Below, one piece after another: positions 10,358 through 46,400 of a DNA stretch of 64,000 bases. The position numbers were made by a program, and so were the translations under genes. The first letter of the stretch is position 1. Every line of letters starts with the position of its first letter. Below the pieces are notes generated by a model, which saw only the letters and a list, made by a program, of their open reading frames with translations, searched no databases and was not told the DNA's origin. Source of the stretch: Hormiphora californensis (Eukaryota > Animalia > Ctenophora); contig CM035351.1 in the NCBI GenBank assembly GCA_020137815.1, positions 9,362,001-9,426,000 on the forward strand, written 5' to 3'.

Positions 10358-10520
10358 GAGGTCTGTTTATATAATGAATTGGGGAGTATTTATAAGTTGT
10401 TTATTTGGAGTTTGTTATTTTCAGTTTTCGTATTATATGACAGATAGGTGTACTGCTATCCAAGTGTTTGTCTTGTTGTTATTCCCCCCACTCCACTAAC
10501 TACCAGTTATAATATCAGTG

Positions 10521-11496
10521 ATGTCAGACCCGGCAGCAAGGGCTGCTTCCCTAATGGCGGAGGGGAAGAAGAAGTTGGGTGGTGGGGGAGGATTCTTCTC
10601 TAAAATGTTTGGAGGCGGATCCGGTACTGAAGATGCCATTGATCTCTTTTGTCAGGTACTTTATTTGCAATGTACTTCCTTGTTATAGTAGCAGCTGATT
10701 AGTAACCACCACACAGTGATCTAAATCCCTCTCTTTCCCAGGCGGCAAACAACTACAAGATGGCCAAGATGTGGTGTGAGGCAGGGGCAGCATTTCAGAA
10801 GGCTGCCTCTCTGAACAGTAGCATCAGTAAGCACGAGTCAGCCTCTCAGTATGTTGAGGCTGCAGGGTGCTTCAAGAAGAACAACACAGAACAAGCTGCT
10901 AAGTGTCTGCCAGGAGGCTATACAAGGTCTATGAGGAGCTTGGGAAGGTTTGGAATTGCAGCAAAGCATTATGGAACCCTGGGGGAGCTGTTTGAGAACG
11001 AGAGAGATCCCAATATTGAGCTGGCTGTTGTGAATTATGAGAAGGCAGCGGACTACTACGAGGGAGAGGAGAGTTACAGCAGTGCTAACAAGTTCAAACT
11101 AAAGGTGGCACACTATAGCGCCCTCACTGATACAGATGCATGGGTACACCAGGGCAGTTAGTATCTACGAGGAGGTGGCAGCCTAGAAGTATTGATAACT
11201 CCCTCCTGAAGTGGTCTGCCAAGGAGTACTACTTCAAGGCGGTGTTGTGTTGTATGTGTGTGAAGGGGGAGAGCAGGGCAGCCATAGCACGGTACGAGGA
11301 GGAGTTCCCTGCCTTCCTCAACACTAGAGAACACAAACTGGTGTGTGGGTTACAGGAGGCTATTGACGAGAGTAACAAGGAGTCATACACAGAGCTGGTA
11401 CAGGAATTTGATAATATCTCACCCCTCGATAAATGGTTCACATCCATCCTGTTGAAGATTAAACGAGGTCTAGATGAGGAACCGGACTTGTGCTGA
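10521..11496 (+). CDS. NAPA: alpha-soluble NSF attachment protein (2 exons, apparent frameshifts)
   Basis: AAN.YKMAK.W, GRF.IAAKH, YEKAADYYEGEES.SSANK, LLKWSAKEYYFKA and ISPLDKWFTSILLKIK. Confidence 0.92.
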
Positions 11497-11892
11497 GTGA
11501 TGTGCTTGTGTGGGGATATTCAACATGAACTGAGTATACTGATCTCTCTCTCTTATAATCTCTACTTTTGATGTTTTGATGTTATTCGCCATTATATTGG
11601 TGTGGTATAATAATTGGTTTGCTTTGATGCAGCAAATTAACACTGTGCTGGCCCCCCAAATAATGGTAGTTTGTTTAGATGTTAACCTGTTTGTTGTACA
11701 ATTTTAACAGCACATCAAGTTGTCTTCTTTTTGGTTTCTTCCTCTATATTATGCCCCCTCGGACCCACCCTCCCCCTTCTCCCCTTCCTTATTCTTCTCC
11801 CCAGTCCCCTCCTAACCATCTCCCTCCCTCTTCGTTCTCCCTCTAACACCCGATCACAGCTACGCGTGTCATGTTTACCATAGCGCCACCAC

Positions 11893-14800
11893 ATGTCCAA
11901 GATCTTCACCCCCACCAACCAGAAACTACTAACCAATGTAGTGGTAGTAAAACTGAAGAAGGGAGGGAAGCGATTTGAGATAGCCTGTTACAAGAACAAA
12001 GTTGTCGCATGGAGAAGTAAAATGTGAGTTTTAGTGAAAATAACCATGATACATATAGATTAGAAAGCCTGTAATAGAAAGGGCAGATGAGTGGTGATGA
12101 GGATAGCGTGCAACTTGGGGGATGTTGCTTTATGAAAAGAGCTCGAATTCCTGAGCTCCAGATTTACAGTTTAACTTGTTTCGGGACGGAGCAAGAATCG
12201 ACCTTATCAACCTGGCCTAGGTGGCTTATAAGGAGGCAGTTCGGTGTATTCGAAGGGGTCACAAGTCATCTTATCTACACAGTTCACCAATCTCCCTCTA
12301 ATAATTTGAACAAAGTTAAACTCGGTATATTTCAATGCAGTTAATTGGTGAGAAAGAACTCAGAAAATCTCAAAAATTAGACCGACCCTCACTCTGTATA
12401 TTAGAAAAGGATGAGAGAGGGGGTGATCCCCCGTTCCTTTTCTGCTACACAAAGTGGCAAATAAGCTCTCTCACCAATATCAATATCACAGCCGACATGA
12501 TTTCTCGTCAGGGCCCTGACGCAATATCAGTTCGGCATGTATGAAATCCAATCTCGTCGACCAACATCCTTTAAAAACAGATCGGATAAGACCAGCTCAC
12601 TCAAAGTCCATAAATCAATTCCTCGAAATAAGATTCGTCCTAAGTAATAATACTAGGAGAAAAAGAACCTTCATTGCCTAAAAATCTAACTCTAGATCTC
12701 AATTTTGTCCCTGAGACTCAGATATAGCCTCTCCAAGTTGTTCATCTGTTCCACCACTAGGAGATACATTTGGTCGTTATCGTCTATGTTGGGGATAGCC
12801 CGGCATGCGTGAGAAGGGTAGTCCTCCATACCCAGGCAGACCTCGGGACTGATCACTATCTCATCAACCTAATGTAGGGGGTAGTGTTAGTCTCATTATA
12901 ATCGGTCAAACGTCAGTCGTATTGGGGGAAGAGAGAAGCTGAATTCGAATATGGGGCTGGGACCAGAATGAGTTTTGAGGCACTCAGAAAAGATTAATTC
13001 CCTATTAGGTTCAGGGTGGGTTAACTAACCTGTATACTCATACTATTGAAGGCACGTCTCTCCTCGTCCCCGAATATCTTCTTGGCCAGTCTGTGCTCAA
13101 TATAACAACGGAGGGAGAGATAACTCTCAATAAGCTTCACACCAGATAGCTTGTAGTTGTCGATAGCATCAACCTTAACACACACCTAGAAATGGAAAAG
13201 GTGTTAGAGCGCTAAGGAAGAAAAGGAATGGTTTATTAAAGCAAGGATCTGAAGGGGTAGTTTATGGTGCTAGATTGCCTAGGTGGATGGGGGATTACCT
13301 CTTTCTTCACGGATAGCTTGTTAAGAATGGTCTCCTGGATCTGGTGGGTGGAAGTCCAACAGTCCGCCACTGACTCATTGAGGGGTTTGGGGCGAGTGAA
13401 ACACTTCTTACGATCCAAACTAAACCTTCCTGGCCCGGGTGCTGCTGCTGCTGCATTGGACACACCAACCAGAGAGTGGCTGACGAGGAAGATAAAGGAG
13501 AGGATGGTAAGAGATATCATCTTGATCCCATCGCAACTAAATGCCCCTTTTATACCCATCTCAGGAGGTGTGGGGTGCAAGCTGTGCGAGGTGCGTCAAT
13601 CGTCATGTGATGCATCCGGCTTACAAGATATAACGTTTAGGCGTATCTAAACGCATATCTTGAGAGGGGTAGTAGGTGAAAAATAGAGAGATAGAGAGTC
13701 GAGAGAGAAAGACAGATACAGAGAGGGACAGAGAAAATTTGCTTTAAAAACTTTCGCACACCTTGGGGTTAAGACTAAAAGATAAAGATCAGAGTTTTCA
13801 AAAGGGGTGCAGCTAAACTGCTTTCAATTAAGTTAGATATCTTTTTTTTCTAAATAACAGAATACTCTGCTATGCCACTTAACATTTTAATTAGTTTAAT
13901 GAAAAAGTTTTCATTTTGTTTTTCAGAGAGAAGAACCTGGACGAAGTGTTACAAACGGATACAGTCTTTGTGAATGTGGTTCGGGGAGAGGTTGCTAAGG
14001 TAACAGATCTCAAGAAAGTCTTCAATACAGATGATCGTAACAAAATATGTTTAGAGGTAAGAACAAATATACTGAGGCCGAGAATATTATATAGACAAAC
14101 AGATAGTTTCGACGTTCCCTCTTTCTTAATCATTCCAGTTCTCTCAGTTCAAGAACATCTCACATCTCCCTATCTAGATTCTGGAGAAGGGAGAGTTTCA
14201 GTTGTCTGAGAAGGAGAGACAGTCTGCCCTCAGTAACAAGTTTACCGAGATAGCAAACTGTATCTCCAACATGTGTATTAACCCTACTACAGAGCGGCCC
14301 TACCCAGTTTCTATGTTAGAGAAGGCCATGAAGGATGCACATATCAGTGTGAACCCCAATAGATCTGCCAAACAACAGGTAACAATGGGGGGGGGGGCGG
14401 GGGCACTGGGCATGGCGAAAGCAATCTGGCAATCAATATCCTGTCATGAGTGAATACAATATATATTGGGTAGTGACAGTGTGATACAGATCAATTCATC
14501 TTGTTCTTTTGAACTAGTAAATCTGCCGATCTCACTAGCTCTTCTCTGTCTATCAATGCATTCCACTGGTCTAACCGTGCTCTCTCAACGTGTTCACATG
14601 TCTGAACGCATGGGGTTGGGATGTTAGACGTTCATATGTGGGTGGGTGGTTGTTAGGCTTGTTCAGATTGCGGGTTCGCCACCCAGGGAGTCTCAAAACA
14701 CAGTAGTTCACCAAGTTTGCAACTGTTTCGGGAGATCTCGCACACAAAGTTCATCATTTACACATTCACGCATCACAGATATTCATAAACACGATCATAT

Positions 14801-15702
14801 CAAAACTCAGGGACGGTCGATCACACAGACGAGACTCACACACGATGTTCAGTGGTGGGAGAGAGAAGAACCCCGAGAGAGAAGAATCTCTCTTCTGTCT
14901 CTCTTCACTTCTGCTTAAATATCCCGTCAACAAAACAGTCACGTGACTTCTGTACCAGAAACAACAGGGGTACTACCAAACTTTGCGACACGCTTGCCCG
15001 ACTAGAACTGTTAACACCTTTCAAGTCAAGATGGCGGCCTATTCAGATTCATAGATCTGAATAACTTTCCCTAAAAACTAATCTAAACTCTACTGGTAAC
15101 TCTGCCGATCTCACTAGCTCGCTCTCTGTCTATCAATGCATTCCACAGGTCTAACCGGGCTCTCTCAACACGTTCACATGTCAATAACATTCACATGTCA
15201 ATAAGCACCAGGTCATATCTAGAACTAAAGTAAGGGGACGGGGCGGACTTAGAGGTACGGTACACTTCACTACCCCCCCCCCCCCCACGATAGGCATTGG
15301 AAGTGTTGAAGACGCTGAAAGAGTCCATCCCTATCGAGAGGGTGAAGATGGTGGTGCGTGTATCAATGTCACAGAGCGATGCCAAGAAGTGCAGGGACAA
15401 GATCAAAGCAATGTACATTAGTATCACCACAGAGGATAACGACGGGCAATTCGAAATTGTAAGTTTTATCAAGAATGGTCCCTGATATTGTTTAGTGCTG
15501 TATAACTCCACTATCCCCACCATATCTATCATCCATCTCTGCCACCTCCCTCTAACCATCTCTACCTCCTCTACAGGTTGGGTTATCGGAGCCTGGTAAC
15601 TACAAACCCCTTGCTGAGCTAGTGGGTAAGCACTCTCGTGGAAAGGGAATGTGTGAAGTGATAGGGGTCCAAGATAATAGTGAACTTGATGTTTTAAAGT
15701 GA
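11893..15702 (+). CDS. SBDS: Ribosome maturation protein SBDS (5 exons: ~11893-12023, 13927-14056, 14178-14378, 15293-15457, 15577-15702)
   Basis: [67 protein letters not shown] and SAKQQALEV. Confidence 0.93.
12692..13520 (-). CDS. Uncharacterised secreted protein (~184 aa), 3 exons (13520-13299, 13185-13030, 12868-12692), nested antisense in SBDS intron 1
   Basis: Canonical GT-AG junctions join three open exons of 222, 156 and 177 nt, all phase 0. The product has a hydrophobic N-terminal signal peptide and 6 Cys. Confidence 0.75.
14513..15182. repeat. Two ~90-bp diverged direct repeats ~579 bp apart in SBDS intron 3
   Basis: tctgccgatctcactagctc...ttcacatgtc at 14513-14602 and 15092-15182. 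Confidence 0.75.
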
Positions 15703-15839
15703 TAACTCCTTTTTATTGAACATTTCTTGTTGTTTTTATCTCTCATGTTTGATGATCTAATGAATTGAGTTTGTATTTTGTTACGTCATTAGGTCTCAGA
15801 ATTCAGATCACTGTTTTTCTCCACAACCTGACCCATCAC

Positions 15840-18800
15840 GCCTACAGCTGGATAGTGCTCTATGTCTCAGTACATGTGATTACCCTCATTTATCAAGAGG
15901 GCTCTAATCACTTCAGATGGTACCTGTGTGTAGGGACCCCTGCTGCCGCAGTGTAACGCAACAAGTTTGGTAGAGTGATAGTTGGAGGACGCGGTGACAC
16001 AGCATCAAGGTTGTGTGCGCGCCTCCACACGCAAGGACATTGCGACCATCTGTGAGTGTAATGAGTGCCTGTAGCACTTCCTATTTAAACCCTGTCCATT
16101 TCGATAATGACTTCATCATGACTGGTGCTGATCACAAATCATCACTGAACTCCAATCACCGGCTGATCATGGATTCAGGGACTTTGAAGGCCCTTATCCG
16201 GGAAGTTGGAGCGGTAAAGGGTAGACCGCGCGCGAAAAGAGGGGACCTTTCGAAAGAGAGAGGTCACCGCGCGCTCCTGTTCAACACAAGAATACAAACT
16301 TTCTCACATCACAAAATATCGAAATCAATCACAACTTTTATCCAAAAACATGAAACACATATTCAAACATAAATCATTTTCAAGATGGCAGGACGGTAAA
16401 GTTTAGTCTAGGTCGCATTGTCCAGGACATCATGAACTTAGGGGGAGGCAGACCCTCAGTTAGAAATTTAACAATAATTTTACTAGCTAGGAAGGGACTA
16501 CTGCCATCAGTCTGCCCCTTCCTCCCAGTCCTCTTCTCTCAGTACAGCTCCTATCCCATCCCCCTCTTCAGGTAAGTAGACACGCCCCTATCTCCACTGC
16601 AAAGTTACCTCCGGTCAGAGGTAGATAGCTGAACGAATGGACTGTGAGACTGCCCTGCTTTCAGTAGAGGTATAACAGTGTTGTGGAGTGCCAATACACG
16701 GTATAGTTGCCTTCTTTCTAGTGTTCCCCTCGCAGAACGCCCGGACAAAAAGGAACACTTCAGAGATGTCACTAGTGGAGACATTAGAGATGTTGACAGT
16801 GATTGGTATTGGTGTTCCCATTGGAAACTCCCCTCCACATCCCTTACATTCTATCACAATACTCTCTTTAAAGGCATGTTGCAGATCTGTACTAGTCTGC
16901 ATGGAACACAGGAAGTCTACTGTCCCCTGTTTGTTGGCAGTCCTCCAGGGACAGTATACTGTATCAGGTTGCAGCAGATCACATCCCATCACCCTCCCTT
17001 GACACTGTGATCTCCTCCCCTGTAGCAGGGTCAACTCTGGCTAGATCACACTCCGTGTTGAGTACCTCCCCCGCCTCTAGGATATGGGAGGTACCAGCGA
17101 CAGTAAAGTGTAACCTCTCTGTACAGAGGGATGTGAGAGAGAGGGACCATCTACAGAGTGTGCTGTCCAGGGGGTGAGGGGAGATGGAGTAGAGATGTAG
17201 TCGGTATAACTAGTGACACTTGTGTAGGGATACTAATCCTAGATTCCCTATAATACCCCCTGTTTGCCTCATAGTACCGGACTATTACAGAGAACACCTC
17301 CTCTATGTGCACAGTGTCCACCCTCCCTCCCCTGTTTCGTCTCACTACTGGTTCTATATCCCCTGCCTCCGTACTGTTCTCATACTCAGTACCACCCCTC
17401 CTTCCTTCTCCTCCTCTCTGGTCCCCAAAACAGCCCTCCCTTCTTTTGAACCCAATCCTCGTATCAACACTTATCTTGATCTGCACAGTCTCACCAGGAC
17501 CTATAGGCAGCGGAACAGCATCATATCGGAAGATGGTTGGAGGGTTAGTCTGGTCTAGGAATTCTAACTCCGTGATTGGATGGTTACTGTTGTTTGTTAG
17601 GCTACATGCACACTCCACCTCCTCCCCTTCATACAGGGCCAGGGAGGGAGGAGAGGTTATGGTCAGGAGAGGCATCACTGGGGCCACATGTATCTCCTCT
17701 ATTTGGTCTAGTGGTAGACGACATGGTATACCCCACAGTTGGGCAGATATGGCGCTCACTCGGAAGGTACAGGCTTGTAGAGGCTTCATTGTTAGTGTTA
17801 CATCTACAACTTGTTTGGGGTAGATGGTGACTGTACTAGGGTAACACTCCACTTCACCACCTGAAACAGGGGGCTATAATGGGAACTGGGGAGACACAAA
17901 ACATAGCAACTAGACTGAATCGGTACTTGAAGTCAGGTAATACAGAATTGGACGGCATACTACGTCTAATCAGTAGGACGTATCAGTATTGAAACACTTA
18001 CCCTCCACGACGCATCTCATGTCTAACAGTTGGAGAGATTGAAGGAGAGGGTTCTCTAACTTCACAACTACCGTACCAAACTCATCAGCCACCCAACACA
18101 CATCACGTTTCTCCCTGGAGACAGAAAGAGAGTTATAGTACCTCAACCTGATAGCCATTCATACAGCTGTCAGCAGGGGGAGCAAGAATCTGAACAAACT
18201 CAACATCTTTATTAAATGGAAGTGGTATAACACTGATTTTAATTCAGGTACACTTACTTAGCCTTTGGGTTGTATATGAAGACACTGGAGCTAACTTGAG
18301 CAACTCTGGGTTGCAGTGTCTCACTCAACACATTGATTGTAACCCGTTTACAGACAGGAATGTGTTTAACAATAATATTCTCCTCAGCATGCCATGTGCT
18401 ATTCTTAACAATCAGATTCAGTATCCTCAGCTGGTCTTCATGCTCTAGATGGGAGTGGAAGTTTTGTAGTAGGACACATCCCAGTACTCTAACCACAGTG
18501 GTGCCATTAGCTAACTTGTCACTTGCAGTTAATGAAGTTCTCCAGTACCATTCTCTGTGGAGGAAGAAATAAATAGGGCGTTAAACTCACTCATACCGTG
18601 CATTTACGGACCGTGCTATTTGAACCGACAGTTCAATAATCGGTTCAGGGAACTGGAAAGGCTAAGGGTAAAGGGGTAGAGTGAAGTAAGTATGTATTTA
18701 CCTGGAGTCGTGGCCAGCCAACCTTCTGCTGCTCGTGATCCCCCGGTACTACCCCATACTTCTCCAGCACCTCCTTTAGAATAGCGAAGGAGATCATATG

Positions 18801-26154: not shown

Positions 26155-29100
26155 TTAAATAAGATTAAAAACTTTGTCTCGTAGTTTGGTGTAAGCCTCA
26201 CCAGCCCTACCCCTCAGTTCCCCCTCCAAGGTCTCCAGAGTTGCAGCAACCCCCTTCACACCACCCAACTCACACAGCACACTGAGAGTCTCAATAACAA
26301 CAGAGACATTATTCCTCGCATTACCACTCACAAACACTCTGAGTGGTTCTGAGATATCCGGTGCGTCATGTTTAGTTTTATGAAGGAGCACTCTCAGTAG
26401 ACCCGACACACGCGTCAGAATGTTTGGAGGTGATTTGGGGCCTAGAGACTTACACGTGAACAACACCTGACACAAAAACGGGAACAGTTTCTGTAGATCG
26501 TGGCACAAGATTTCAGGGTCTGCTGTTCTCTCCTCCAGATGGTTGAGAAATGACAGGAATGCATGTAGTTTTTCAGGGGGCATGGGTAGTTTAGTATATC
26601 CTCGACTAGGTTCTGCTATGTAATTTGCAAAGGATAACCGAAATGATCTGGCAGATTTGCTGATACCGTCTCTGAACGAAGAGGCAAACAGGGAGGGGAG
26701 AAAGGGGTTGGTTTGTTCCACGTCTTTTAGTGACACACAACTAAAGATCTCATCAAATACTCGCATAACATTCTTTAGAAACAGATTGTTTGATCTGTAG
26801 GAGAGTTTAGCAAGACCAGACCAGATTTGAGGGCTAACTGCCACCATTATCTTCCTATCCAGACACTTGTCTCCAACCAGGTAGAATGTTTGGAAGAGAG
26901 TGACGAGAGGGGAGTCAGGTTTAGTGGGACTGTAGAGAAGATCTGGGGCACTCTCAAATAGAAACCCAACAAACTGGTATACTGACTTCTGGTTAGATGA
27001 GTTGTCCTTTACAGCTGTTAATAGCAACTCAGGCAACCCCTCAGACACCTTCCAGACACCTTCTTTTAGTGTCTGAGCCTCAGCAAACTGCTTACTAGCG
27101 TAGGAAGATGTTAGTGATTTGATAACGTCTGTGACAACAGAAGCCCGATACTCAGTCTGCTGAATCTCACTAAAATGCTCCTTCAGGAGTCCATGAAGAG
27201 TTTTAACTAGCGATTCTTCAGCCTCTATCAGTCCAGACACATGCAATACACAAAGTCTACAGAATACCATATTAGCAATGGGCAGTCTGAACTCAACTGG
27301 AAAACTTCCTAAAGTTATCCTCACCTGTTGATTAGGGTTCGATACAATTCGGTAGATGAACTGACAGGCGAGAGGGTTGCTGAGAGATCTGGAGAGGGTT
27401 AGAACTTGTTACAGAGTCTTGTCTGATGCTCTAAACCGAGTGTAGCAATGCTGCAAGCAGGGAAGGAATAAACCGTGCCAGATCAGAACGCTTTACCAGG
27501 CTCACTAGTGGTTTCAGCAGGTATTTTGAGAGGGATGATATCTCCAATTCAGTGGGAGCGGTGTCTGAACTAGATACAATCCGCTCTGAGATTGTGATAA
27601 CTTTACAGCATTGCTCAAATGATCCCTTCTCCCAAATCATCTCTAACCAGGTTCCCAGGAATCTCAAGTGATCACAATCCAATGCCAGCGCCTGGGTGAG
27701 CAGTCTCTCAACTGAACCAAATATCTGGACTTGTTTCTGTTCTGATTCCCGTACAAAGTCCTCTGATAATCTGTTCAACATGATTGTCAGTTGATCCAGG
27801 AATATCTCACATGACTTGCCTCTCTCCTTGTATACCATAACAAGGGCTATCTGGAGAGATATGACTGCCCCCGGACACCCACTATTAGAGATCACATCAC
27901 CACTTTGAGATGCAAACAGCCGCTCCACGTGACCCTGTATCGCACCCAGATCACATATCATGAGACAGGTACATGTCAGTAGACCCAGGTTCTGTAGGGA
28001 ATCAGTAGAAAGGGAGGAGAGGGTTCTGTGGTCTATCTTAGAGGCTGTAAAGACCCGTTTTACAAGGGTCAACCTGCGCATCTCAGGTAACTTAGCGAGT
28101 ACAGCGGTGTAGTACCGGAGGAAGGAGATGAAGAGAGGTTCAGATGTAGGATGGTGGTCTGAGGTTGTGATATCACGGCACAGGGTGAGGTATTGGGAGG
28201 CAGGGAGGATGGAAACTAGTCGTGTAGTACCTTGTGCTGTCAGGGATCTGAAATGAGGGTGGGTGTAAAATAAAGATCAAACGAGTCAGACGAATATATT
28301 TTAGCGGATTTTAGTGCTACTAAATTGTGGTTTTATTTAATAAAAGCTGTCGAGAAATTAGCGAATGTCTACATCACCTGATAAAGTGTTGTTGAAGGCT
28401 CATAACAATGACAACATTAGGCTCCCACAGCTCCCCCACTGCCACTAGGGACCTCAATGTTTGGGGAAGGTGCAATGAGGGGGTGGAGCAGGCTAGTTTA
28501 GTCAGCTCGTGTAGAACACCCCAGTTTGGTTCAGTGTGGCCGTGTTGTGTTGCTACCCTGGCTACACTCTCACATAACCACACTAACCCTGATACACACT
28601 CTGTAGTGGACACTGAAAGAAGGGAGGTGGCGTTACTAAGATATAGTTAGATGCCTTCTGAAAGAACATCTCTTCATTCAGAGAAATAAATTGGAACGAG
28701 AACCTATCTAGAAACATGGACCTTTGACCCAGTACCTAGTTGGTTGATGTGACGATTGAATGTCTGCCAGAAAGACAGCTCAGGTTGGTTTGCAACAGAT
28801 GAGACACATTTCACAAGGGTGCCCCAACACGCCTCCTCGCAGCACCCCAGAGAGAGCGGGGAGGTGTATTCAGGGACCTGCAGTAAGGAACTTGTCTTCC
28901 TGTACCCTGTTAGAGATACCTGGACACCTTGTCTTACCAGCACCTCCATAAGAGTGTTCACTGTCCCACTAAACAGTTCCAGATGGGTAGAAAGGAACCT
29001 GAAAATATTTGATTGTATCAAAGGTGCGATTTGGAGTGTTCGGTTTGGAGTGTTGGTAATGATTTGTCGGATTCTACAATCTCAAAAGGTTGAATAGCAA

Positions 29101-30916
29101 GTCCTTGTGTAAGATCACCTGTGCGCTATGCGAAGTCGTGTGACAGCGAACAGTAGTTTGCAGTGGGTATAGAAATCACTCCCTCCACAGTCCCCTGGTA
29201 TTGAAGTTAATAGAGTCTGTAAGGGCGAGGTAAACATCTCAACTCGGGTAGGCCGTAACCGACACAGATAGGAGCACAGGGTCCTGATATGAGTGAATTG
29301 TTCAGGAGTATTACAGGAGGTGGGGTCCCATAGTACACGCAGGACACAGTCCTCCAGCCATTGCACCTCTTCGGGGGTGTCCTCTAACTGGAAATATAGG
29401 GACATGTTAACTATTAGGAATAAACGAAGGGCATGTACATGTGTGTCTCATGAGTTATTTCATTGATTGCAGTGAATTACAGGAACCAAAGAACCGAGCA
29501 CCTCTATGTGTTACCAATGTGCAGAACGCTTAGTAGTTTAGATGAGAGAAAACACAGGTATTTCATGATGCATGATCATTGATCAGCTTAAAACAATTTG
29601 AATAATACAATTTACAACAGTTTACACTCTGGTTACAGTTGACTCTCTTCTGGAAGTACTTGGTTTGTTCATTCGGGTTACAAAAGCGGCCTCTACAGCG
29701 AAGGAGACAAGGGTCAGTATCACTAGTAGTACAACTACAGCTGCCCCAATCTTTAGGTAGTGGAGAAGATATTCGTTGAGTAATTCCGTTGCGTAGTCAG
29801 AAAGGAGGGGTGTAGGAGTGGTCGGGGAGATGGCGGTACAGTTGAATGTCACCACAACCCTTTGGAGGTCACCAGAATGTCCTCGGACGGAGAAGATCCT
29901 TGCGTTGTCCTCACATGTTTCCACTTGAGTGCAGTGCATATATCGGAACAAGCGGAGAATGGTGTCGTTGGCGTTGAGGTTGTAGACTTGGGGGCACTTG
30001 ATGAAGGGAGATGCTGTAGCAGTAGTCATCACTCCGGCAAGGAAGATAAGAGCAAAGCAAATCATTTTGGTTGAATAAAAATAAAAGTTCTCTGTGATTT
30101 ATAGTTTTTGAGTTGGCGAGATTTGAGAGGCCTAGTTTCGTATCACCGATTATGGACTATCAGGTCACATGAAAAAGCAGGCCTAGTTTCGTATCACCGA
30201 TTAGGGACTATCAGATCACATAACAAAGCAGGCTTAGTTTCGTATCACCGATTATGGACTATCAGATCACATGACAAAGCAGGCCTAGTTTCGTATCACC
30301 GATTAAGGACTATCAGATCACATGACAAAGCAGGTCTAGTTTCGTATCACCGATTAAGGACTATCAGGTCACATGACGAAGCAGGCCTAGTTTCGTATCA
30401 CCGATTAAGGACTATCAGATCACATAACAAAGCAGGCCTAGTTTCGTATCACCGATTAGGGACTTTCAGATCACATGGTAAAGCGGGCTTAGTTTCGTAT
30501 CACCGTTTATGGACTATCAGATCACATGGTAAAGCGGGCTTAGTTTCTTAGCACCGAATAATAAGGAATCCATAATTCAGAAATAATATCAGACAAATTC
30601 AATTCTTCGCTGCTCCCAGGAGCAGGCAAAGGCGTCAGAGGTGAAAGAGGCCACAATTCCAGGGAACTAATTTTACAAATGAAAACAAGTGGTTTTACCA
30701 GACAATTGTTTCGATCCAGATGGATCTCATCAGTGGAATAAAATGGGGGAACTAATTTTATCAGTTTTTCGTCTAAGAAGAACGAATAATCAGTGCTATT
30801 CAACTACAATTAATTATAATTACCGCTTTGAGGATGAATGGGTGGTTGAACAAGACATCGTTACGGGGTAATTCCTGTTCGGGGAGTGGGCCAATGTCAT
30901 ACTCGCATTCTCTCAT
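26155..30916 (-). CDS. MMS22L: MMS22-like DNA repair protein (exon 1 30916-30824 spliced to 29388; further exons to 26155)
   Basis: SPL...C.E..W..L....SFW..FN, EPNW..L.EL, LWEPN..IV..L..HF and C-terminal EAY.KL resemble MMS22L. Exon 1 (31 codons) joins exon 2 in phase 0 and is conserved in the duplicate copy. Confidence 0.7.
29622..30065 (-). CDS. Uncharacterised 147-aa type I membrane protein, nested on the same strand in MMS22L intron 1 (copy A)
   Basis: Signal peptide, 4 extracellular Cys, N-glycosylation sequons, T/P stalk and TM helix; ORF length is preserved in the diverged copy B. Confidence 0.75.
   Translation of the reverse strand: MICFALIFLAGVMTTATASPFIKCPQVYNLNANDTILRLFRYMHCTQVETCEDNARIFSVRGHSGDLQRVVVTFNCTAISPTTPTPLLSDYATELLNEYLLHYLKIGAAVVVLLVILTLVSFAVEAAFVTRMNKPSTSRRESTVTRV
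30128..30548. repeat. 51-bp minisatellite (~8 copies)
   Basis: Unit aaagcaggcctagtttcgtatcaccgattagggactatcagatcacatgac. Confidence 0.95.
30551..30796. mobile_element. ~250-bp MITE (TA|GCAC...GTGC|TA) present in copy A and absent from copy B
   Basis: Imperfect TIR gcaccgaataat / aataatcagtgc; empty site ...gtttctTAatcaa near 36620. Confidence 0.6.
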
Positions 30917-31702
30917 GTAGAGCTATAACAGGGCGATGGTGTTGGTTAGAGACGGTTTAAAGCGAAACAATGAATTACATCATTTAGAGATTTTAACAAC
31001 TTTAAATCCAAAGAACTAAAACATGCATAATGAACTCTAAAACATATAAACACAATTAAAATACACACATGTGACTACGTATAACATCTCTCTAAGAGAT
31101 AACCACGGCAGTGCGTTGTTGGAGAATGGAGAGGGTCAGGAACTCCACACTAGCACAGACTACATAGAAGGTCAGGATTCAGGAACGATGTGATACGTGA
31201 TTCTCTACCACTTAGACCAATTCGTAATACTGAACACGATCAACGATTCAGTGAAGATCACATGACCTGACTAACTTTAAGAAACATGACACTGTGTCTC
31301 TTGTGGTTGTCCAATTTAGCTGATCTTGGTCACATTGGAAAGCTAATCGATAGCCAAACATAATTGGTTAAATTTTGAACCGGAAAATATTTTTTCCTGG
31401 AATGAATGACAATGTTCATTCCGTTCATGAAAATGAATTTTGAGCTAGAGCTCTGATTTTTCTGTCAGGATCAAGATAGACATAGTGGAGCAACCCTGCC
31501 AAGTTACAGCTCTCCACCACATCGGCAACTATGGTGGTCTAGGGGGGGGGGGCTTTTTTTGCCGCACACGGTATAAACACAATTAAAATACACATGTATG
31601 TGACTACGTATAACATCTCTTTAAGAGATAACCATGGAAGTGCGTTGTATTGTTGGAGAGGGTCAGGCACTCCACACTAGCCAATATAATATCTCCTACC
31701 TC

Positions 31703-32534
31703 CTACTGATCAAGGAATTGTGCTGTCCTCCAATCATACAGCCTGCTCTCTCTATAGAACCCCCCGCTAGTGGTTGGGACAGTGCACACATGGGTGGGGG
31801 TCACAGCACCCTGATCTATAGTCAGGTGCCCCTTGTGACTGGTCATGTCTGTATCCACATAACCAGGACAACACGAGTTGATAATCACCCCACTACCCTC
31901 CATCTCTCTAGCCAGGGCCACCGTGTGGGCGTTAAGGAACGTTTTAGAGGTCGAGTAGGCGCTGTCCTTAGCAAACAGGGAGTAGTCATCATTCTCAACA
32001 GCTGTAATGTATTCCCTGTATATCTCCATCACACCCTCCTCTGTGAGACCAGGATCTGTTAGTCGGGCTCTAATTGGATTAGCAGGGTCTTTAAATGTGT
32101 AGTTTAGTTGCCCAGCCATGGACGCTACCTGACACACTCTACCACCCTTCTTTACCAGAGGTAGGAGGGCCCTGGTAACTTTGATTGTTGCTATGAGGTT
32201 GGTTGCCATGGTAACAGTAGATTTCTCAATGAGGGGAGCATGTACTAGCATTCTTGTATGCTATACCAGCATTATTACACAGCACATCGATCTCTCCCCC
32301 GTATTTCTCTTTAATCACCCCCACAAACGCCCCAATACTGTCCTCACTACAGATATCAAGCTGTTCGAATACAGGAGATAGACCCTCTGATTTGAGGGCC
32401 TCCACAGCCGCCTTTCCCCGGGTCTCATCTCGTGCTGTCAGGATGACTGTACCACCTAGCTTCTTACATAGCGCTCTGACAATACCAAACCCAACACCCT
32501 TGTTACCTCCAGTTACTACCGCTACCGTTGTCAT
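31703..32534 (-). CDS. CBR1: Carbonyl reductase (SDR, CBR1-like), copy A, with a frameshift near 32240
   Basis: VTGGNKGVG, NNAGI, YSTSK and CCPGYVDTDM motifs; split across two ORFs. Confidence 0.85.
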
Positions 32535-32778
32535 GGCTAGGAAGGTGGGGAGGGGTGAGCAGTTGTCATGGATATAGGGAACTATATAATATGGCTACGG
32601 GTGGAAGAGGTGTGGACCGTGGAGAGAGGGAGAGAGAATGGAGAAGGTTTGGGATAGTAAAACGCGATAGATAAAACATGCTTTACACAGACCTTTGTAC
32701 AATCAATATAAAATATCCCCCTCTAAAAAATGTAAACCTCGATTAAAAGTCACCTCCCCCAACTAAGTCTGCACACCT

Positions 32779-33398
32779 TTACAATTGTCCTATAACGACA
32801 GCAGGTAGTATAGTGCCTGCTGGGACTGTTTCTCTGTCCTCTGATCTTGGTGGGAGTGAGAGGAGAATGTTGGCACTTCTCATGCTGAGTAGTCGGCTGC
32901 TACATTGCCCTCCTGTCAGCTCCACCTCACCGTCACCACTATATACTGAAAGTGAGGGAATTAGTGTGAGTGATTTGGTGTTACATTGGTGTTGGGGAGA
33001 TCTAGTAGGGCGTAGACTAACAAATCTAACAAGTCATAGTAGGAGTGCAAGTGATCAAATCAAACAGCTGTATTTACTATTTACCTGCCCGGATATATTC
33101 AGGTCTAGGATCAAGACGTCGTGTTGTGGGTAGGGGTACATTGATGATACTAGGATTATACTTCCTCCCCTCCCAGGTGTGTAGTGAGGGAAGGACAAAG
33201 AGTTTGTATGTTACCATGGCACTGACTGGGTTACCGGGCAACCCAAAGAACAGACATGATGGTGATGTTGGGTCCCTTGGTATAGTGGCAAATGTTGTTG
33301 GCTTCCCAGGTTTCATGAATACTCTTCCGAAGTGGATCTTTCCATTTAGACTCAAAATAGAGTTCTTTACGTGGTCTGTCTCACCCATTGATACTCCA
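32779..33398 (-). pseudogene. GPHN: Duplicated last two exons of gephyrin (no 5' part)
   Basis: GGVSMGETD..K, HFGRVFMKPGKPTTF and FGLPGNPVSAMV; only satellite lies upstream. Confidence 0.75.
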
Positions 33399-33484
33399 CC
33401 TGTACACAACTCAGGTAACCATTAGTGACCACTACAAGTAACACCTAGTTACAACTGCTAACAACTAGTAACCACTAGTTAGTT

Positions 33485-34291
33485 AGGAGGGTCAAAGTGG
33501 GAAAGTTTCTTAGAGATTAGGAGGGTCAAAGTGGGAAAGTTTCTTAGAGATAAGGAGGGTCAAAGTGGGAAAGTTTCTTAGAGATAAGGAGGTTCAAAGT
33601 GGGAAAGTTTCGTAGAGATTAGGAGAGTCAAAGTGGGAAAATTTCTTAGAGATTAGGAGGGTCAAAGTGGGAAAGTTTCTTAGAGATAAGGAGGGTCAAA
33701 GTGGGAAAGTTTCTTAGAGATAAGGAGGGTCAAAGTGGGAAAGTTTCTTAGAGATAAGGAGGGTCAAAGTGGGAAAGTTTCTTAGAGATAAGGAGGGTCA
33801 AAGTGGGAAAGTTTCTTAGAGATAAGGAGGGTCAAAGTGGGAAAGTTTCTTAGAGATAAGGAGGGTCAAAGTGGGAAAGTTTCTTAGAGATAAGGAGGGT
33901 CAAGTGGGAAAGTTTCTTAGAGATAAGGAGTGTCAAAGTGGGAAAGTTTCTTAGAGATAAGGAGGGTCAAAGTGGGAAAGTTTCTTAGAGATAAGGAGGG
34001 TCAAAGTGGGAAAGTTTCTTAGAGATAAGGAGGGTCAAAGTGGGAAAGTTTCTTAGAGATAAGGAGGGTCAAAGTGGGAAAGTTTCTTAGAGATAAGGAG
34101 GGTCAAAGTGGGAAAGTTTCTTAGAGATAAGGAGGGTCAAAGTGGGAAAGTTTCTTAGAGATAAGGAGGGTCAAGTGGGAAAGTTTCTTAGAGATAAGGA
34201 GTGTCAAAGTGGGAAAGTTTCTTAGAGATAAGGAGGATCAAAGTGGGAAAGTTTCTTAGAGATAAGGAGGGTCAAAGTGGGAAAGTTTCTT
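33485..34291. repeat. 34-bp satellite array (copy A)
   Basis: Unit gataaggagggtcaaagtgggaaagtttcttaga. Confidence 0.97.
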
Positions 34292-35490
34292 TCTTCTTGT
34301 TTGGGGAAGGTGCAATGAGGGGGTGGAGCAGGCTAGTTTAGTCAGCTCATGTAGAACACCCCAGTTTGGTTCAGTGTGGCCATGTTGGGTCGCCAACCTG
34401 GCTACACTCTCACATAACCACACCAGCCCCGATACACACTCTGTAGTGGACACTGAAAGAAGGGAGGGGGCGTTACTAGGATACTTACTAGATGTCTTCT
34501 GAACATCTCTTCATTCAGAGAAACAAATTGGAACGAGAACCTAGAGAAACATTGGCCCAGTACCTAGTTGGTTGATGTGGCGATTGAATGTCTGCCAGAA
34601 AGACAGCTCAGGTTGGTTAGATGACACACATTTTACAAGGGTACCCCAACACGCCTCCTCGCAGCACCCCAGAGAGAGCGGGGAGGTATATTCAGGGATC
34701 TGTAGTAGGGAACTTGTCTTCCTGTACCCTGTTAGAGATACCTGGACACCTTGTGTCACCAGCACCTCCATAAGAGTGTTCACTGTCCCACTAAATAGTT
34801 CCAGATGGGTAGATAGGAACCTGAAAATGAACTGGGTGTATTATAGGTTCGGTTTGTTATGTTCTAACCCTCTTTTACATTTATATAAGAGGGCGGAGCG
34901 CACGGAAAAAGGGTCGGGGAAGGCAAAGGTTCGATTTGGAGTTTTGGTAATGATTTGTTGGATTCTACAATCTAAAAAGGCTGAATAGCAAGTCCTCGTA
35001 AGATCACCTGTGCGCTATGCGAAGTCGTGTGACAGCGAACAGTAGTTTGCAGTGGGTATAGAAATCACTCCCTCCACAGTCCCCTGGTATTGAAGTTAAT
35101 AGAGTCTGTAAGGGCGAGGTAAACATCTCAACTCGTGTGGGCCGTAACCGACACAGATAGGAACAGAAGGTCCGGATATGAGTGAACTGTTCAGGAGTAT
35201 TGCAGGAGGTGGGGTCCCATAGTACACGCAGGACACAATCCTCCAGCCATTGCACCTCTTCAGGGGTGTCCTCTAACTGAAAAAAACAGGGACATGTTAG
35301 CTATTAGGAATAAACGAAGGGCATGTACATGTGTGTCTCATGAGTTATTTCATTGATTGCAGAAGAGAATTACAGGACCCAAAGAACCGATGTTACCATG
35401 TGCAGAACGTTTAACAGTTTAGATGAGAGAACACAGGGATTTCATGCTGCATGATCATTGATCAGCTTAAAACAATTTGAATAATACAAT

Positions 35491-35934
35491 TTACACTCCG
35501 GTTACAGTTGACTCTCTTCTGGAAGTAGTGGGTTTGTTTCTTCGTGTTACAAAAGCGGCCTCAACAGCGAAGGAGACAAGGGTCAATATCACTAGTAGTA
35601 CAACTACAGCTGCCCCAATCTTTAGGTAGTGGAGAAGATATCCGATGAGTTGTTCCGTTGCGTCGTCAGAAAGGAGGGGTGTAGGAGTGGTTGGGGGGAT
35701 GGCGGTACAGTTGAATGTCACCACAACCCTTTGGAAGTCACCAGAATGTCCAGGGAAGGAAAGGATCAAGGGGTTGTCCTCACATGTTTCCACTTGAGTG
35801 CAGTGCATATATCGGAACAACCGGAGAATGGTGTCGTTGGCATTAAGGTTGTAGACTTGGGGGCACTTGATGAAGGGAGTCGCTGTAGCAGTAGTCATCA
35901 CTCCGGCAAGGAAGATAAAAGCAAAGCAAATCAT
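35491..35934 (-). CDS. Uncharacterised 147-aa type I membrane protein, copy B
   Basis: Paralog or allele of 29622-30065, intact. Confidence 0.75.
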   Translation of the reverse strand: MICFAFIFLAGVMTTATATPFIKCPQVYNLNANDTILRLFRYMHCTQVETCEDNPLILSFPGHSGDFQRVVVTFNCTAIPPTTPTPLLSDDATEQLIGYLLHYLKIGAAVVVLLVILTLVSFAVEAAFVTRRNKPTTSRRESTVTGV

Positions 35935-35996
35935 TTTGGTTTAATAAAAATAAAAGTTCTCTGTGATTTATAGTTTCTGAGTTGGTGAGATTTGAG

Positions 35997-36620
35997 AGGC
36001 CTAGCTTCGTATCACCGATTAGGGACTATCAGATCACATAACAAAGCAGGCCTAGTTTCATATCACCGATTAGGGACTATCAGGTCACATGACAAAGCAG
36101 GCCTAGTTTCGTATCACCGATTATGGACTATCAGGTCACATAACAAAGCAGGCCTAGTTTCGTATCACCGATTAGGGACTATCAGGTCACATAACAAAGC
36201 AGGCCTAGTTTCGTATCACCGATTAGGGACTATCAGAATTCAGGTCACATGACAAAGCAGGCCTAGTTTCGTATCACCGATTAGGGACTATCAGATCACA
36301 TAACAAAGCAGGCCTAGTTTCGTATCACCGATTAGGGACTATCAGATCACATAACAAAGCAGGCCTAGTTTCGTATCACCGATTAGGGAGTTGAGAAATA
36401 ACAAAGCAGGCCTAGTTTCGTATCACCGATTAGGGACTATCAGATCACATGACAAAGCAGGCCTAGTTTCGTATCACCGATTAGGGACTATCAGATCACA
36501 TAACAAAGCAGGCCTAGTTTCGTATCACCGATTAGGGACTATCAGATCACATAACAAAGCAGGTCTAGTTTTATATCACTGATAGTGTCAGATCACAATA
36601 TGGAAAAGCGGGCCTAGTTT
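35997..36620. repeat. 51-bp minisatellite (~12 copies), copy B
   Basis: Same unit as 30128-30548. Confidence 0.95.
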
Positions 36621-37045
36621 CTTAATCAATTTTAATTTCCTAAATAATCATTATTACCGCTTTGAGGATGAATGGATGGTTGAACAAGACATCGTTACGT
36701 GGTAATCCATATTCGGGGAGTGGGCCAATGTCATACTCGCATTCTCTCATGTAGAGCTATAACAGGGCGATGGATTACCATTGGGAGAGAGGGTTTATAG
36801 TGAAACAGTGAATTACATTAATTAGAGATTAACAATTTTATCCAAAGAACTAAAACATGAATAATGAACTCTAAAACATATAAACACAATTAAAATACAC
36901 ATGTATGTGACTACGTATAACATCTCTTTAAGAGATAACTATGGCAGTGCGTTGTATTGTTGGAGAGGGTCAGGAACTGCACACCACACTAGCACAGACT
37001 ACATAGAGGGTCAGGCACTCCACACTAGCCAATATCTCTTCCTTC

Positions 37046-37876
37046 CTACTGATCAAGGAATTGTGCTGTCCTCCAATCATACAGCCTGCTCTCTCTATAG
37101 AACCCCCCGCTAGTGGTAGGGACAGTACACACATGGGTGGGGGTCACAGCACCCTCATCTATAGTGAGGTGCCCCTTGTGACTGGTCATGTCAGTATCCA
37201 CGTAACCAGGACAACACGAGTTGATAATCACCCCACTACCCTCCATCTCTCTAGCCAGGGCCACCGTGTGGGCGTTAAGGAAGGTTTTAGAGGTCGAGTA
37301 GGCACTATCCTTAGCAAACAGGGAGTAGTCATCATTCTCAACAGCTGTAATGTATTCCCTGTATATCTCCATCAGTCCTTCCTCTGTCAGACCAGGATCT
37401 GTTAGCCGGGCTCTAATTGGATTAGCAGGGTCTTTAAATGTGTAGTTTAGTTGACCAGCCATGGACGCTACTTGACACACTCTACCACCCTTCTTTACCA
37501 GAGGTAGGAGGGCCCTGGTAACTTTGATTGTTGCTATGAGGTTGGTTGCCATAGTAACAGTAGATTTCTCAATGAGGGGGGCTGTACTAGCATTCTTGTA
37601 TGCTATACCAGCATTATTGCACAACACATCGATCTCTCCCCCGTATTTCTCCTTTATCACCCCCACAAACGCCCCAATACTCTCCTCACTGCAGATATCC
37701 AGTTGTTCAAATACAGGAGATAGACCCTCTGATTTGAGGGCCTCCACAGCTGCCTTTCCCCGGGTCTCATCTCGTGCTGCCAGGATGACTGTACCACCTA
37801 GCTTCTTACATAGCGCCCTGACAATCCCAAACCCAACACCCTTGTTACCTCCCGTTACTACCGCTACCGTTGTCAT
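37046..37876 (-). CDS. CBR1: Carbonyl reductase (SDR, CBR1-like), intact and intronless; start MTTVAVV
   Basis: Full set of SDR motifs: TGxxxGxG, NNAG and YxxSK. Confidence 0.9.
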   Translation of the reverse strand: MTTVAVVTGGNKGVGFGIVRALCKKLGGTVILAARDETRGKAAVEALKSEGLSPVFEQLDICSEESIGAFVGVIKEKYGGEIDVLCNNAGIAYKNASTAPLIEKSTVTMATNLIATIKVTRALLPLVKKGGRVCQVASMAGQLNYTFKDPANPIRARLTDPGLTEEGLMEIYREYITAVENDDYSLFAKDSAYSTSKTFLNAHTVALAREMEGSGVIINSCCPGYVDTDMTSHKGHLTIDEGAVTPTHVCTVPTTSGGFYRESRLYDWRTAQFLDQ

Positions 37877-38099
37877 GGCTAGGAAGGTGGAGAGGTGTGA
37901 GAGGTTGTCATGGTTATAGGGAACTATGGCTAGTGGTAGAAGAAGGGTGAACCGCAGTATAGAAAGAGAATGGGGAAGGTTTGGGATAGTAAAACGCGAT
38001 AGATAAAACATGCTTTACACAGACCTTTGTACAAACAGTATAAAATATCCCCCTCTAAAAAATGTAAACCTCGATTAAAAGTCACCTCCCCCAACTAAG

Positions 38100-38172
38100 T
38101 TGGTTACGAAATAATAACCCCTTGCCTCGCGACTTTCGCGCGCTGGCGAGGGAGGGGTAACTTCGTTACCAA
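38100..38172. mobile_element. 73-bp TTGG...CCAA micro-MITE with 9-bp TSD; empty site in the duplicate copy
   Basis: TSD ccaactaag at 38091-38099 and 38173-38181; a single ccaactaag at 32759-32767. Confidence 0.9.
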
Positions 38173-38192
38173 CCAACTAAGTCTGTACACCT

Positions 38193-43450: not shown

Positions 43451-46400
43451 TCTCTATCACACTCTCTTTCACTGTCTTATTCCATTATATTCACCATTTA
43501 TATCCCTGATCCCGGCAGCAGGCAAAGGTGTAAGTGGGTCACCTTTCCCGCCAACTAATTTCAATTAGTTTTTGGCTTAATTTAGGTCCCTTTTTGGTTT
43601 CTAATCGCAGCATGACATTATTTCATGATGTAATATTGTCGAAATGATGCGTTATATGAGAAACGAGACGAATTTCTGTGAAAATCGTATTTTAGACGTC
43701 ATAATGACGTCATTTGACGTAATTAGTGACGTCGTAACGACGTAATTGCATCACGATATATTTTTAATCAATACCCCAAAGGAGCTTGTAAAGTTTCATT
43801 GGCCACAGTGGTCAGGAAAAGGAGTTTTTGCTCGAAAAACGTTCAATTTGCTGAATTTTTCGTCAAATTTTTGACTTCCGACGCGATTTAAGGGCTCAAA
43901 ATGATAAGCTACGAAAATTCGCTATATAGTATCTGAAAGTTCAGACGATTTGCCGGTAACGAATTTTCGTCAAATCAGAAATCGGAAAACGTCTTTAGGG
44001 TGCTAGAGGCGTTTGAAAAAATGTGGTCGGTCTCGCGCAATGACGTCACTCGTGACGTCATTGCGCGCGTCATAGGTAAGATGGAGAGTCGCCACCCAGA
44101 TGGGTACATGCACGAGACAATTGTCTGTCGAATGCCGCTTGGTTTAAGGTCGTACGATCTCTGGTTCGTCTCAAACTGGGACCAAACGGAAGGTAACAAA
44201 GCGTCTATCCATGTATATATATATGTATCAACCTAGTTATCCCCACACTGAATTTTCTGTTTTGGGGGTGGTGTTATAACTTTTGAACAAAAAGAGCTAG
44301 CCACTTGAAATTTTTACCATCGATAGAGATCTACAAGAAGCTTCTAAGTACAAAATTTCAGCTTCCTAGCTCTTCCGGTTCGGGAGTTATGGCATGTCAA
44401 AAAGTGCCAAAATGGGCTAAAAGTATGAAATAACTATATATACGCTGTGAGCAAGCGGGCCGTTTTTGGGGGAAATTTTTTTCGGGAGATGGATGGGGTC
44501 ACCTTTGCGCTTGCCAGCGCAGTGATGTATATATCAACCTAGTTATCCCCACACTGAATTTTCTGTTTTGGGGGTGGTGTTATAACTTTTGAACAAAAAG
44601 AGCTAGCCACTTGAAATTTTTACCATCGATAGAGGTCTACAAGAAGCTTCTAAGTACAAAATTTCAGCTTCCTAGCTCTTCCGGTTCGGGAGTTATGGCA
44701 TGTCAAAAAGTGCCAAAATGGGCTAAAAGTATGAAATAACTATATATACGCTGTGAGCAAGCGGGCCGTTTTTGGGGGAAATTTTTTTCGGGGGATGGAT
44801 GGGGTCACCTTTGCGCTTGCCAGCGCAGTGATTAGGAGCGTCAAAGTGGGAAAGTTTCATAGAGATAAGGAGGGTCAAAGTGGGAAAGTTTCTTAGATAT
44901 TAGGAGCGTCAAAGTGGAAAAGTTTCTTAGAGATAAGGAGGTTCAAAGTGGGAAAGTTTCTTAGAGATAAGGAGGGTCAAAGTGGGAAAGTTTCTTAGAG
45001 ATAAGGAGGATCAAAGTGGGAAAGTTTCTTAGAGATAAGGAGGGTCAAAGTGGAAAAGTTTCTTAGAGATAAGGAGGTTCAAAGTGGGAAAGTTTCCTAG
45101 AGATAAGGAGGGTCAAAGTGGGACAGTTTCTTAGAGATAAGGAGGGTCAAAGTGGGAAAGTTTCTCAGAGATAAGGAGGGTCAAAGTGGAAAAGTTTCTT
45201 AGAGATAAGGAGGTTCAAAGTGGGAAAGTTTCTTAGAGATAAGGAAGGTCAAAGTGGAAAAGTTTCTTAGAGATAAGGAGGGTCAAAGTGGGAAAGTTTC
45301 TTAGAGATAAGGAGGGTCAAAGTGGAAAAGTTTCTTAGAGATAAGGAGGGTCAAAGTGGGAAAGTTGGGTAGACATAAGGAGGGTCAAAGTGGGAAAGTT
45401 TCTTAGAGATAAGGAAGATCAAAGTGGGTAAGTTTCTTAGAGATAAGGAGGGTCAAAGTGGGAAAGTTTCTTAGAGATAAGGAGGTTCAAAGTGGGAAAG
45501 TTTCTTAGAGATAAGGAGGGTCAAAGTGGGAAAGTTTCTTAGAGATAAGGAGGGTCAAAGTGGGAAAGTTTCTTAGAGATAAGGAGGGTCAAAGTGGAAA
45601 AGTTTCTTAGAGATAAGGAGGTTCAAAGTGGGAAAGTTTCTTAGAGATAAGGAGGGTCAAAGTGGGAAAGTTTCTTAGAGATAAGGAGCGTCAAAGTGGG
45701 AAAGTTTCTTTGAGATAAGGAGGGTCAAAGTGGGAAATTTTCTTAGAGATAAGGAGGGTCAAAGTGGGAAAGTTTCTTAGAGATAAGGAGGGTCAAAGTG
45801 GGAAAGTTTCTTAGATATTAGGAGCGTCAAAGTGGGAAAGTTTCTTAGAGATAAGGAGGGTCAAAGTGGGAAAGTTTCTTAGATATTAGGAGGGTCAAAG
45901 TGGGAAAGTTTCTTAGAGATAAGGAGGGTCAAAGTGGGAAAGTTTCTTAGAGATAAGGAGGGTCAAAGTGGGAAAGTTTCTTTGAGATAAGAGGATCAAA
46001 GTGGGAAAGTTTCTTAGAGATAAGGAGGGTCAAAGTGGGAAAGTTTCTTAGAGATAAGGAGGGTCAAAGTGGGAAAGTTTCTTAGAGATAAGGAGGGTCA
46101 AAGTGGGAAAGTTTATTAGAGATAAGGAGGGTCAAAGTGGGAAAGTTTCTTAGAGATAAGGAGTAGTTATCACACTACCCACCAGTTGATATGATGACAT
46201 CTGCAACAAGACTAGCACCATCTAGCTCATGCTCTGTATCAGCAGGTGTATCAGGTAGGTGTTCCACGTGTACCACATTGTATCCATCCTCAGCCAGCAG
46301 GTTGGATAATGCACACGTGTTACTATCACGTACCTATATAGGACTGAATAAATAAATGAATTGCCTGAGGGGATTTTGAAACCCCAGGAAATAATTATTA

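Follow-up and report, generated by a model that had tools for sequence, protein, structure and literature searches.

The first intron of the SBDS gene of the comb jelly Hormiphora californensis holds a second gene on the opposite strand. The locus lies in the window, by which we mean the whole 64-kilobase (kb) stretch of DNA analysed here (assembly GCA_020137815.1, contig CM035351.1, positions 9,362,001 to 9,426,000, forward strand). Three minus-strand coding exons (74, 52 and 58 codons plus a stop) give a protein of 184 amino acids (aa). A preliminary description of the locus, made from sequence, had proposed such a hidden gene, and it is present exactly as written there, with its exons and both GT..AG introns. 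The features are listed below by window position; X1 to X4 are RNA runs and lengths are in nucleotides (nt).

13299..13520, minus strand: coding exon 1, aa 1-74 (sequence; RNA over 13297-13463)
13186..13298, minus strand: intron 1, 113 nt, phase 0, GT..AG (bridged by an X4 contig; fit of an X1 loose end)
13030..13185, minus strand: coding exon 2, aa 75-126 (sequence, RNA, fold model of exon 2)
12869..13029, minus strand: intron 2, 161 nt, phase 0, GT..AG (bridged by X1 and X4 contigs, two studies)
12692..12868, minus strand: coding exon 3, aa 127-184 and TAG (sequence, RNA, fold model of exon 3, database fragment P0004)
12374..12691, minus strand: 3' untranslated region (UTR), minimum extent (contigs of X1, X2, X3 and X4)
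13452..13520, minus strand: predicted signal peptide, aa 1-23 (hydropathy; mostly outside RNA cover)
13548..13554, minus strand: TATA-like box, 34 nt before the ATG (sequence)
11893..12023, plus strand: SBDS coding exon 1 (Pfam SBDS_N; RNA joints)
12024..13926, plus strand: SBDS intron 1, 1903 nt, phase 2, containing the entire nested gene (joint 12023->13927, GT..AG, X4 contig)
13927-14056, 14178-14378, 15294-15458 and 15577-15702, plus strand: SBDS exons 2-5 (RNA joints, 250-aa model, Pfam)

RNA and sequence conservation confirm that the nested antisense gene is real, expressed and conserved. Five RNA runs from mixed marine or aquatic libraries were listed, four of which, from three studies, have contigs on this stretch; these are assembled contigs and carry no level, tissue or transcript-end information. 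Spliced minus-strand RNA, by which the preliminary description had said its gene could be checked, is present: one 889-nt X4 contig lacks precisely the two introns, and intron 2 is likewise missing from a contig of X1, which comes from another study. Furthermore, 8 of 10 letters in a loose end of X1 at 13297 agree with the start of exon 2, whereas 2 of 10 agree with unspliced DNA. The skipped stretches end in CT..AC on the plus strand, indicating that the transcript runs along the minus strand. Bins wholly within either intron have zero depth in all four runs, showing that the contigs derive from spliced RNA and not from genomic DNA. X2 and X3 reach down the 3' UTR to 12374, and X3 also covers most of exon 3. 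RNA cover begins at codon 20 and leaves out the first 19 codons (13464-13520), so that the ATG and the greater part of the signal peptide are read from DNA alone. The gap in RNA over 13464-13620 speaks neither for nor against transcription there.

Differences between the RNA contigs and the window show that the coding frame is under strong purifying selection. Away from contig ends 34 differences are listed (the contigs carry more), of which one lies in the UTR and 33 are distinct coding changes. Synonymous changes make up 29 of the 33, against an expected share of 0.21, and 27 of the 33 fall at third positions (p 6e-16); the four non-synonymous changes listed give a ratio of non-synonymous to synonymous change (pN/pS) of about 0.04. 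Each of the other five frames is interrupted by 5-14 stops, and the best of them (antisense, in register) reaches a ratio of 19:14. No listed change alters a cysteine (Cys), and Cys137 and Cys148 carry synonymous changes. All indels listed on the nested gene are in the 3' UTR, with none in the coding sequence from codon 20 on. Among the X4 differences listed, the nested gene has 15 synonymous and 2 non-synonymous codons versus at least 27 and 1 in SBDS. The contig differences may represent alleles or a sister species. A lack of conservation had been named beforehand as grounds for giving up the gene, and a synonymous excess of 29:4 was found.

Both introns are in phase 0, as had been claimed, and in each a motif resembling a branch site, CTAAC, lies 22 nt upstream of the acceptor. 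The 5' end of the nested gene is ambiguous, owing to upstream ATGs in frame at 13559 and out of frame at 13531. TATA-like heptamers of the sort found at 13548..13554 occur 16 times in the window on both strands, and the same letters may alternatively be coding sequence read from the in-frame ATG at 13559. Neither AATAAA nor ATTAAA was found in 11900-12691, Rfam gave no matches over 11500-16000, and a tblastn search with the 184-aa model found no paralog in the window, the best other match having an E of 0.10.

Exon 1 encodes a hydrophobic signal-like N-terminus, a Pro/Gly linker, the basic RKK at 37-39, Cys40, the single N-glycan site at N48 and a predicted helix A with Cys54. In exon 2, Cys76 belongs to the proposed AB loop and Cys101 to helix B, and a proposed helix C comes after Gly113-Asp114; exon 3 contains a Pro/Gly-containing loop with Cys137 and Cys148, followed by a C-terminal helix (157-182). 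The translation therefore bears out the six Cys, two per exon, and the RKK site noted in the preliminary description. Pro and Gly are concentrated in aa 24-47 and 133-156. Dibasic sites lie at 37, 38, 72, 109 and 117, with one Gly-Arg at 31-32, and the predicted mature chain is acidic (isoelectric point, pI, 5.2-6.0). Hydropathy is about 2.0-2.2 over aa 1-20, the sole strongly hydrophobic stretch of the protein; small residues of the kind common at cleavage sites follow at its end, and signal cleavage is predicted anywhere in aa 23-27. Judged by hydropathy and size alone, this looks like a signal peptide followed by a small single secreted domain, and the 184-aa product is likely secreted. The earlier claim of secretion stands as far as the signal-like start is concerned, with the stretch before codon 20 known from the genome.

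We modelled exon 2 alone and exon 3 alone with AlphaFold. The exon 2 model is one helix over aa 81-121, confident at about 85-114 and weak after Gly113-Asp114; the exon 3 model is a loop followed by helix 157-182. The protein is predicted to be mostly helical, and we infer a layout of helix A, an 18-residue loop, helix B, a short turn, helix C, a loop of about 30 residues and helix D. The reading we put first, with a probability of roughly 0.4, is that the nested gene encodes a four-helix-bundle extracellular (paracrine) signal acting on a cell-surface receptor. Its own promoter, with the TATA-like box at 13554-13548, would drive the nested transcript; the protein would enter the secretory route, lose a signal peptide of about 23 aa, be glycosylated at N48 and form three disulfides. 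Trimming at RKK may then leave a mature chain of about 145 aa starting at Cys40, that is, one helical domain of 17-18 kDa in which helices A (48-70), B (about 85-112), C (114-126) and D (157-182) would follow the up-up-down-down plan of helical cytokines. The receptor might be a cytokine receptor with JAK or a receptor tyrosine kinase, and the role immune or developmental.

Helical cytokines share the up-up-down-down bundle and escape recognition by common sequence methods, as described in passages of a published study (PMC4063663). Because they cannot be traced by sequence, their origin is open. IL-2 genes, in the part of another paper that treats them, have four exons and phase-0 introns, the exons holding the signal and helix A, the AB loop, helices B and C, and a large CD part (PMC6070626). 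Compared with genes of the IL-2 type, nested exons 1 and 3 match the first and the last exon, and nested exon 2 corresponds to the middle two fused. The rest of the last IL-2 exon is loop plus helix D. By prediction, both nested introns correspond to IL-2 introns 1 and 3, lying after predicted helices A and C, and the middle intron is absent. This placing of the introns relative to predicted structure is the best argument for a cytokine, although it depends on predicted helix ends.

Short-chain class I helical cytokines (IL-2/IL-4/GM-CSF type) likewise have a signal peptide, a mature chain of about 145-160 aa, phase-0 introns and disulfides, and similarity to them in sequence would not be expected. 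Members of the class signal through a cytokine receptor and JAK/STAT or through a class III receptor tyrosine kinase. Their first exon holds the signal and helix A, and their last a long loop and C-terminal helix, as predicted here. They differ in having four exons, whereas the nested gene has three with no intron between the AB loop and helix B; moreover, the host here is a non-bilaterian, and the fold of the nested protein is a prediction from single-exon models. SCF, M-CSF and Flt3L are also of the short-chain class I type, and possible resemblances in Cys spacing link the nested protein to SCF and M-CSF. Interferon/IL-10 class II proteins share with it a length of about 180-200 aa, a signal of 22-23 aa and introns all in phase 0. 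In the nested protein a Cys directly after a basic site might pair with a Cys about 97 residues further along, as in IFN-alpha. A section of a recent preprint defines the interferon/IL-10 class by five exons and five helices (bioRxiv 10.64898/2026.05.30.728932), and its structure screen found no interferons outside chordates, where they stop at lancelets, ctenophore coverage being unstated in that section. RNA gives the nested gene three exons in place of the five-exon 0-0-0-0 pattern with five helices.

The preliminary description had also held phase-0 introns and size to be typical of helical cytokine genes. The phase is as claimed, yet phase-0 introns alone say little because three of the four SBDS introns are phase 0 as well. 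We have set aside both phase-0 introns and nesting as stand-alone evidence of a cytokine, both being common.

Several observations weigh against a four-helix signal. The fold evidence is limited to the single-exon models of exons 2 and 3, both of low confidence (mean predicted local distance difference test, pLDDT, 68 and 64; predicted template modelling score, pTM, 0.39 and 0.33). The exon 2 model is a continuous helix over 81-121 in place of a B-turn-C hairpin, and Foldseek returned nothing at E<=0.001 for either model. Amphipathic helices had been claimed beforehand; one of the four proposed, aa 48-70, has a helical moment above shuffles (p 0.03), but B, C and D do not (p 0.22-0.27), while the moment is high for 133-156, a stretch that we read as loop because it contains three Pro. 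The exon number, three, is neither four nor five; RNA covers neither the start codon nor most of the signal peptide; and Pfam gave no family at E<=10 for any of the three exons.

On the receiving side of such a signal, published evidence from ctenophores is mixed. Of the non-bilaterians, they retain the smallest number of conserved JAK-STAT proteins in the passages of a survey that concern them, which also report no functional study of non-bilaterian JAK-STAT (PMC11193209), and part of another paper treats the canonical JAK, which has a pseudokinase, as bilaterian (PMC3670263); both count against a four-helix signal. In its favour, a putative JAK and a STAT are expressed in Mnemiopsis muscle, according to a section of a further report (PMC13749725). 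The main text of a paper on Mnemiopsis immune genes contains no whole-word JAK, STAT or interferon (PMC11797021).

Homologs were searched for exon by exon, which limits reach. Among PDB sequences no exon had a match below E 1.6, the weak match at E 1.6 being a cilia protein. A word-based search among longer proteins gave 0 of 36 candidates at E<=1 for exon 1 and 0 of 6 at E<=10 for exon 2; the ESM Atlas had no usable match for exons 2 and 3, and none of 597 stretches from JGI metagenomes matched exon 3. Exact look-up of four neighbouring proteins likewise returned none. An exhaustive phmmer search of exon 3 against 1.84 billion representatives produced two matches. P0004, from ENA, is a 54-aa fragment of exon 3 with 96% identity; P0005, a bacterial-type repeat protein matched over 29 aa, was dismissed as chance. 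A 441-aa integrase-like protein in the 90% cluster of P0004 (P0006) is unrelated in sequence, a database clustering artefact. The literature surveyed, mostly without subscription papers and with no search aimed at this sequence, describes no ctenophore helical cytokine. The statement of the preliminary description that no homolog was recognised therefore holds for full-length relatives, the near-identical P0004 fragment being all that was found.

How far this silence speaks for a lineage-specific protein can be gauged from DNA polymerase delta, encoded elsewhere in the window. No named ctenophore is among the 120 matches listed for it, an unexplained gap in the sequence evidence for a ctenophore host; the named ones are animals at about 58-71%. 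In a quick tree (37 rows, no outgroup) the window polymerase branches outside the cnidarians, bilaterians and one sponge sampled, and its branch is long. Few close relatives of this animal therefore seem to be in the databases, and finding no homologs says little for lineage restriction. The label lineage-specific, given earlier, agrees with the absence of a full-length homolog but gains weak support from it.

Taken together, the earlier proposal of a secreted signalling four-helix bundle keeps its two long predicted helices and its introns at predicted helix-to-long-loop boundaries, while fold and signalling are not established. The nested protein may well act as a secreted helical factor, and that it belongs to the helical cytokines is plausible and unproven. 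The more specific view, that this comb jelly has a true homolog of the helical cytokines, a four-helix ligand of up-up-down-down topology retaining two ancestral phase-0 introns, we regard as unlikely, though worth keeping in sight. Immune cytokines are usually under much looser constraint than this gene, and a constraint like that of housekeeping genes suits a factor for growth or homeostasis better than an immune cytokine that evolves fast. In any case the locus provides a verified, tightly conserved orphan, predicted to be helical and probably secreted, in the likely sister group of other animals. Should it fold like a helical cytokine, it would be a candidate for a signalling molecule of great age in animals; should that fold fail, what is left is a well-supported, unannotated gene for a secreted ctenophore protein, of modest interest.

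A secreted helical protein of another fold that does not signal, such as a carrier or binding, adhesive or mucus, gamete-recognition or extracellular-matrix protein, is a quite possible alternative, short of a probable one. The signal-like start, the six Cys, the helices and the constraint fit such a protein equally well, the models support two helices only, and nothing cytokine-specific was matched on fragments in Pfam, PDB or Foldseek. Constraint close to that of SBDS among the X4 differences listed (15/2 against at least 27/1 codons) is also in keeping with it, as is the existence of many unannotated ctenophore secreted proteins. The inferred order of helices and loops, in which an intron follows helix A and another follows helix C, is however that of the cytokine plan, and the nested protein shows neither the repeats nor the low-complexity tracts of structural proteins.

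We consider it improbable that the product is a precursor of neuropeptides or a prohormone, from which cleavage at basic sites would release short peptides. A passage of one paper describes ctenophores as probably dependent on peptide signalling (PMC5095125), which lends this idea some appeal, and the signal-like start, the dibasic sites, the Gly-Arg and the lack of homologs outside the lineage are shared with ctenophore secretory peptide precursors. In contrast to these, the constraint here extends across all three exons with no variable spacer, and together with six Cys and long helices it points to one folded domain. Sites 109 and 117 lie within a predicted helix, and no peptide is repeated. 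Furthermore, none of six short motifs occurs in four supplementary files of PMC9525235, a weak cross-species test.

A defence or membrane-active helical protein (antimicrobial, lytic or saposin-like) would likewise be small, helical, secreted and provided with six Cys. The predicted mature chain is acidic, though, and a pN/pS of about 0.04 is unlike that of arms-race genes. Saposin Cys spacing is unlike that of the nested protein, which counts against this idea as well. With no paralog in the window and no Pfam saposin match on single exons, we judge it quite improbable.

It is very improbable that the protein is real but not secreted, having another start (the in-frame ATG at 13559 or another 5' exon), with the hydrophobic stretch serving as a membrane anchor or absent. 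No RNA covers 13464-13560, the 5' UTR would be very short if the TATA-like box were used, and frame shifts in the adjoining alpha-SNAP gene suggest assembly indel errors. Yet the RNA from codon 20 on has no indels, the N-terminus closes with the small residues expected at a cleavage site, and an even number of Cys and an N-glycan site fit the secretory route. Chance reading frames or non-coding antisense RNA, which would agree with the lack of a full-length homolog in protein searches, are in practice refuted by the synonymous excess, besides exact splicing in two studies, indels confined to the UTR and 0 of 300 shuffles of the host intron giving 184 aa (maximum 99; the gene-model rules were tuned on this very locus, and shuffles can end short).

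RNA joints give the host gene, SBDS, four introns, in phases 2, 0, 0 and 0, at positions that are presumably all those of the human gene. SBDS exon 3 (14178-14378, plus strand) aligns end to end with residues 87-153 of a PDB SBDS chain; it is identical to the top PDB chain at 35 of 67 residues and to L001, a metagenome SBDS mRNA, at 83%. JGI metagenomes hold two loci matching this exon, the spliced mRNA L001 and a weak distant match (L002). L001 is identical to the window SBDS at 193 of 251 residues (77% in protein), and its 5' end is a close variant of the ctenophore spliced leader, a leader published for H. californensis in part of its genome paper (PMC8527503). By these sequence data alone the host of the window is likely a ctenophore. 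The nested gene as far as it is mapped (12374-13520) lies wholly within the SBDS intron, which an X4 contig bridges, so the antisense nesting first described from sequence is borne out. Passages of the same paper count 2357 nested genes in 1654 hosts (PMC8527503); a whole gene inside one host intron is therefore nothing unusual in this genome, and the nesting is probably incidental genome compaction.

Short unspliced X4 contigs lie in SBDS introns 1 and 3 (13572-13859 and 14610-15204) and may be pre-mRNA, DNA carry-over or repeats. Upstream, the alpha-SNAP gene (Pfam SNAP; 10500-11496, plus strand) changes frame twice in about 60 nt near 11130-11190, and its translation also appears out of frame briefly near 10900; the frame changes suggest assembly indel errors or a damaged copy. 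A pyrimidine run and AG shortly upstream of the ATGs at 11893, 6506, 37876 and 52484, all of housekeeping-type genes, are likely trans-splice acceptors, judging from their letters. The nested gene and an open reading frame (ORF) at 30062 have TATA-like boxes in place of this signal.

DNA polymerase delta is read as one 1009-codon ORF at 49458-52484 on the minus strand. Its C-terminal zinc-finger family, present in nearly all matches, was not found by Pfam, and a 23-base-pair (bp) duplication lies at the 3' end of the ORF (49469-49515), pointing to an intron or an assembly slip. A tandem segmental duplication of about 91% identity occupies 29038-34291 and 34929-39697. Each copy contains an ORF of about 146 aa that begins like a signal peptide and probably spans a membrane (no Pfam match for the first copy), besides what we take to be a carbonyl-reductase-like ORF and a gephyrin/MoeA-like exon. 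The window also contains tandem arrays: G-skewed 34-bp arrays at 33485-34291, 38890-40820 and 44830-46163 (24, 57 and 39 copies), 51-bp arrays at 30128-30561 and 35997-36583, and a 177-bp array at 54263-55092.
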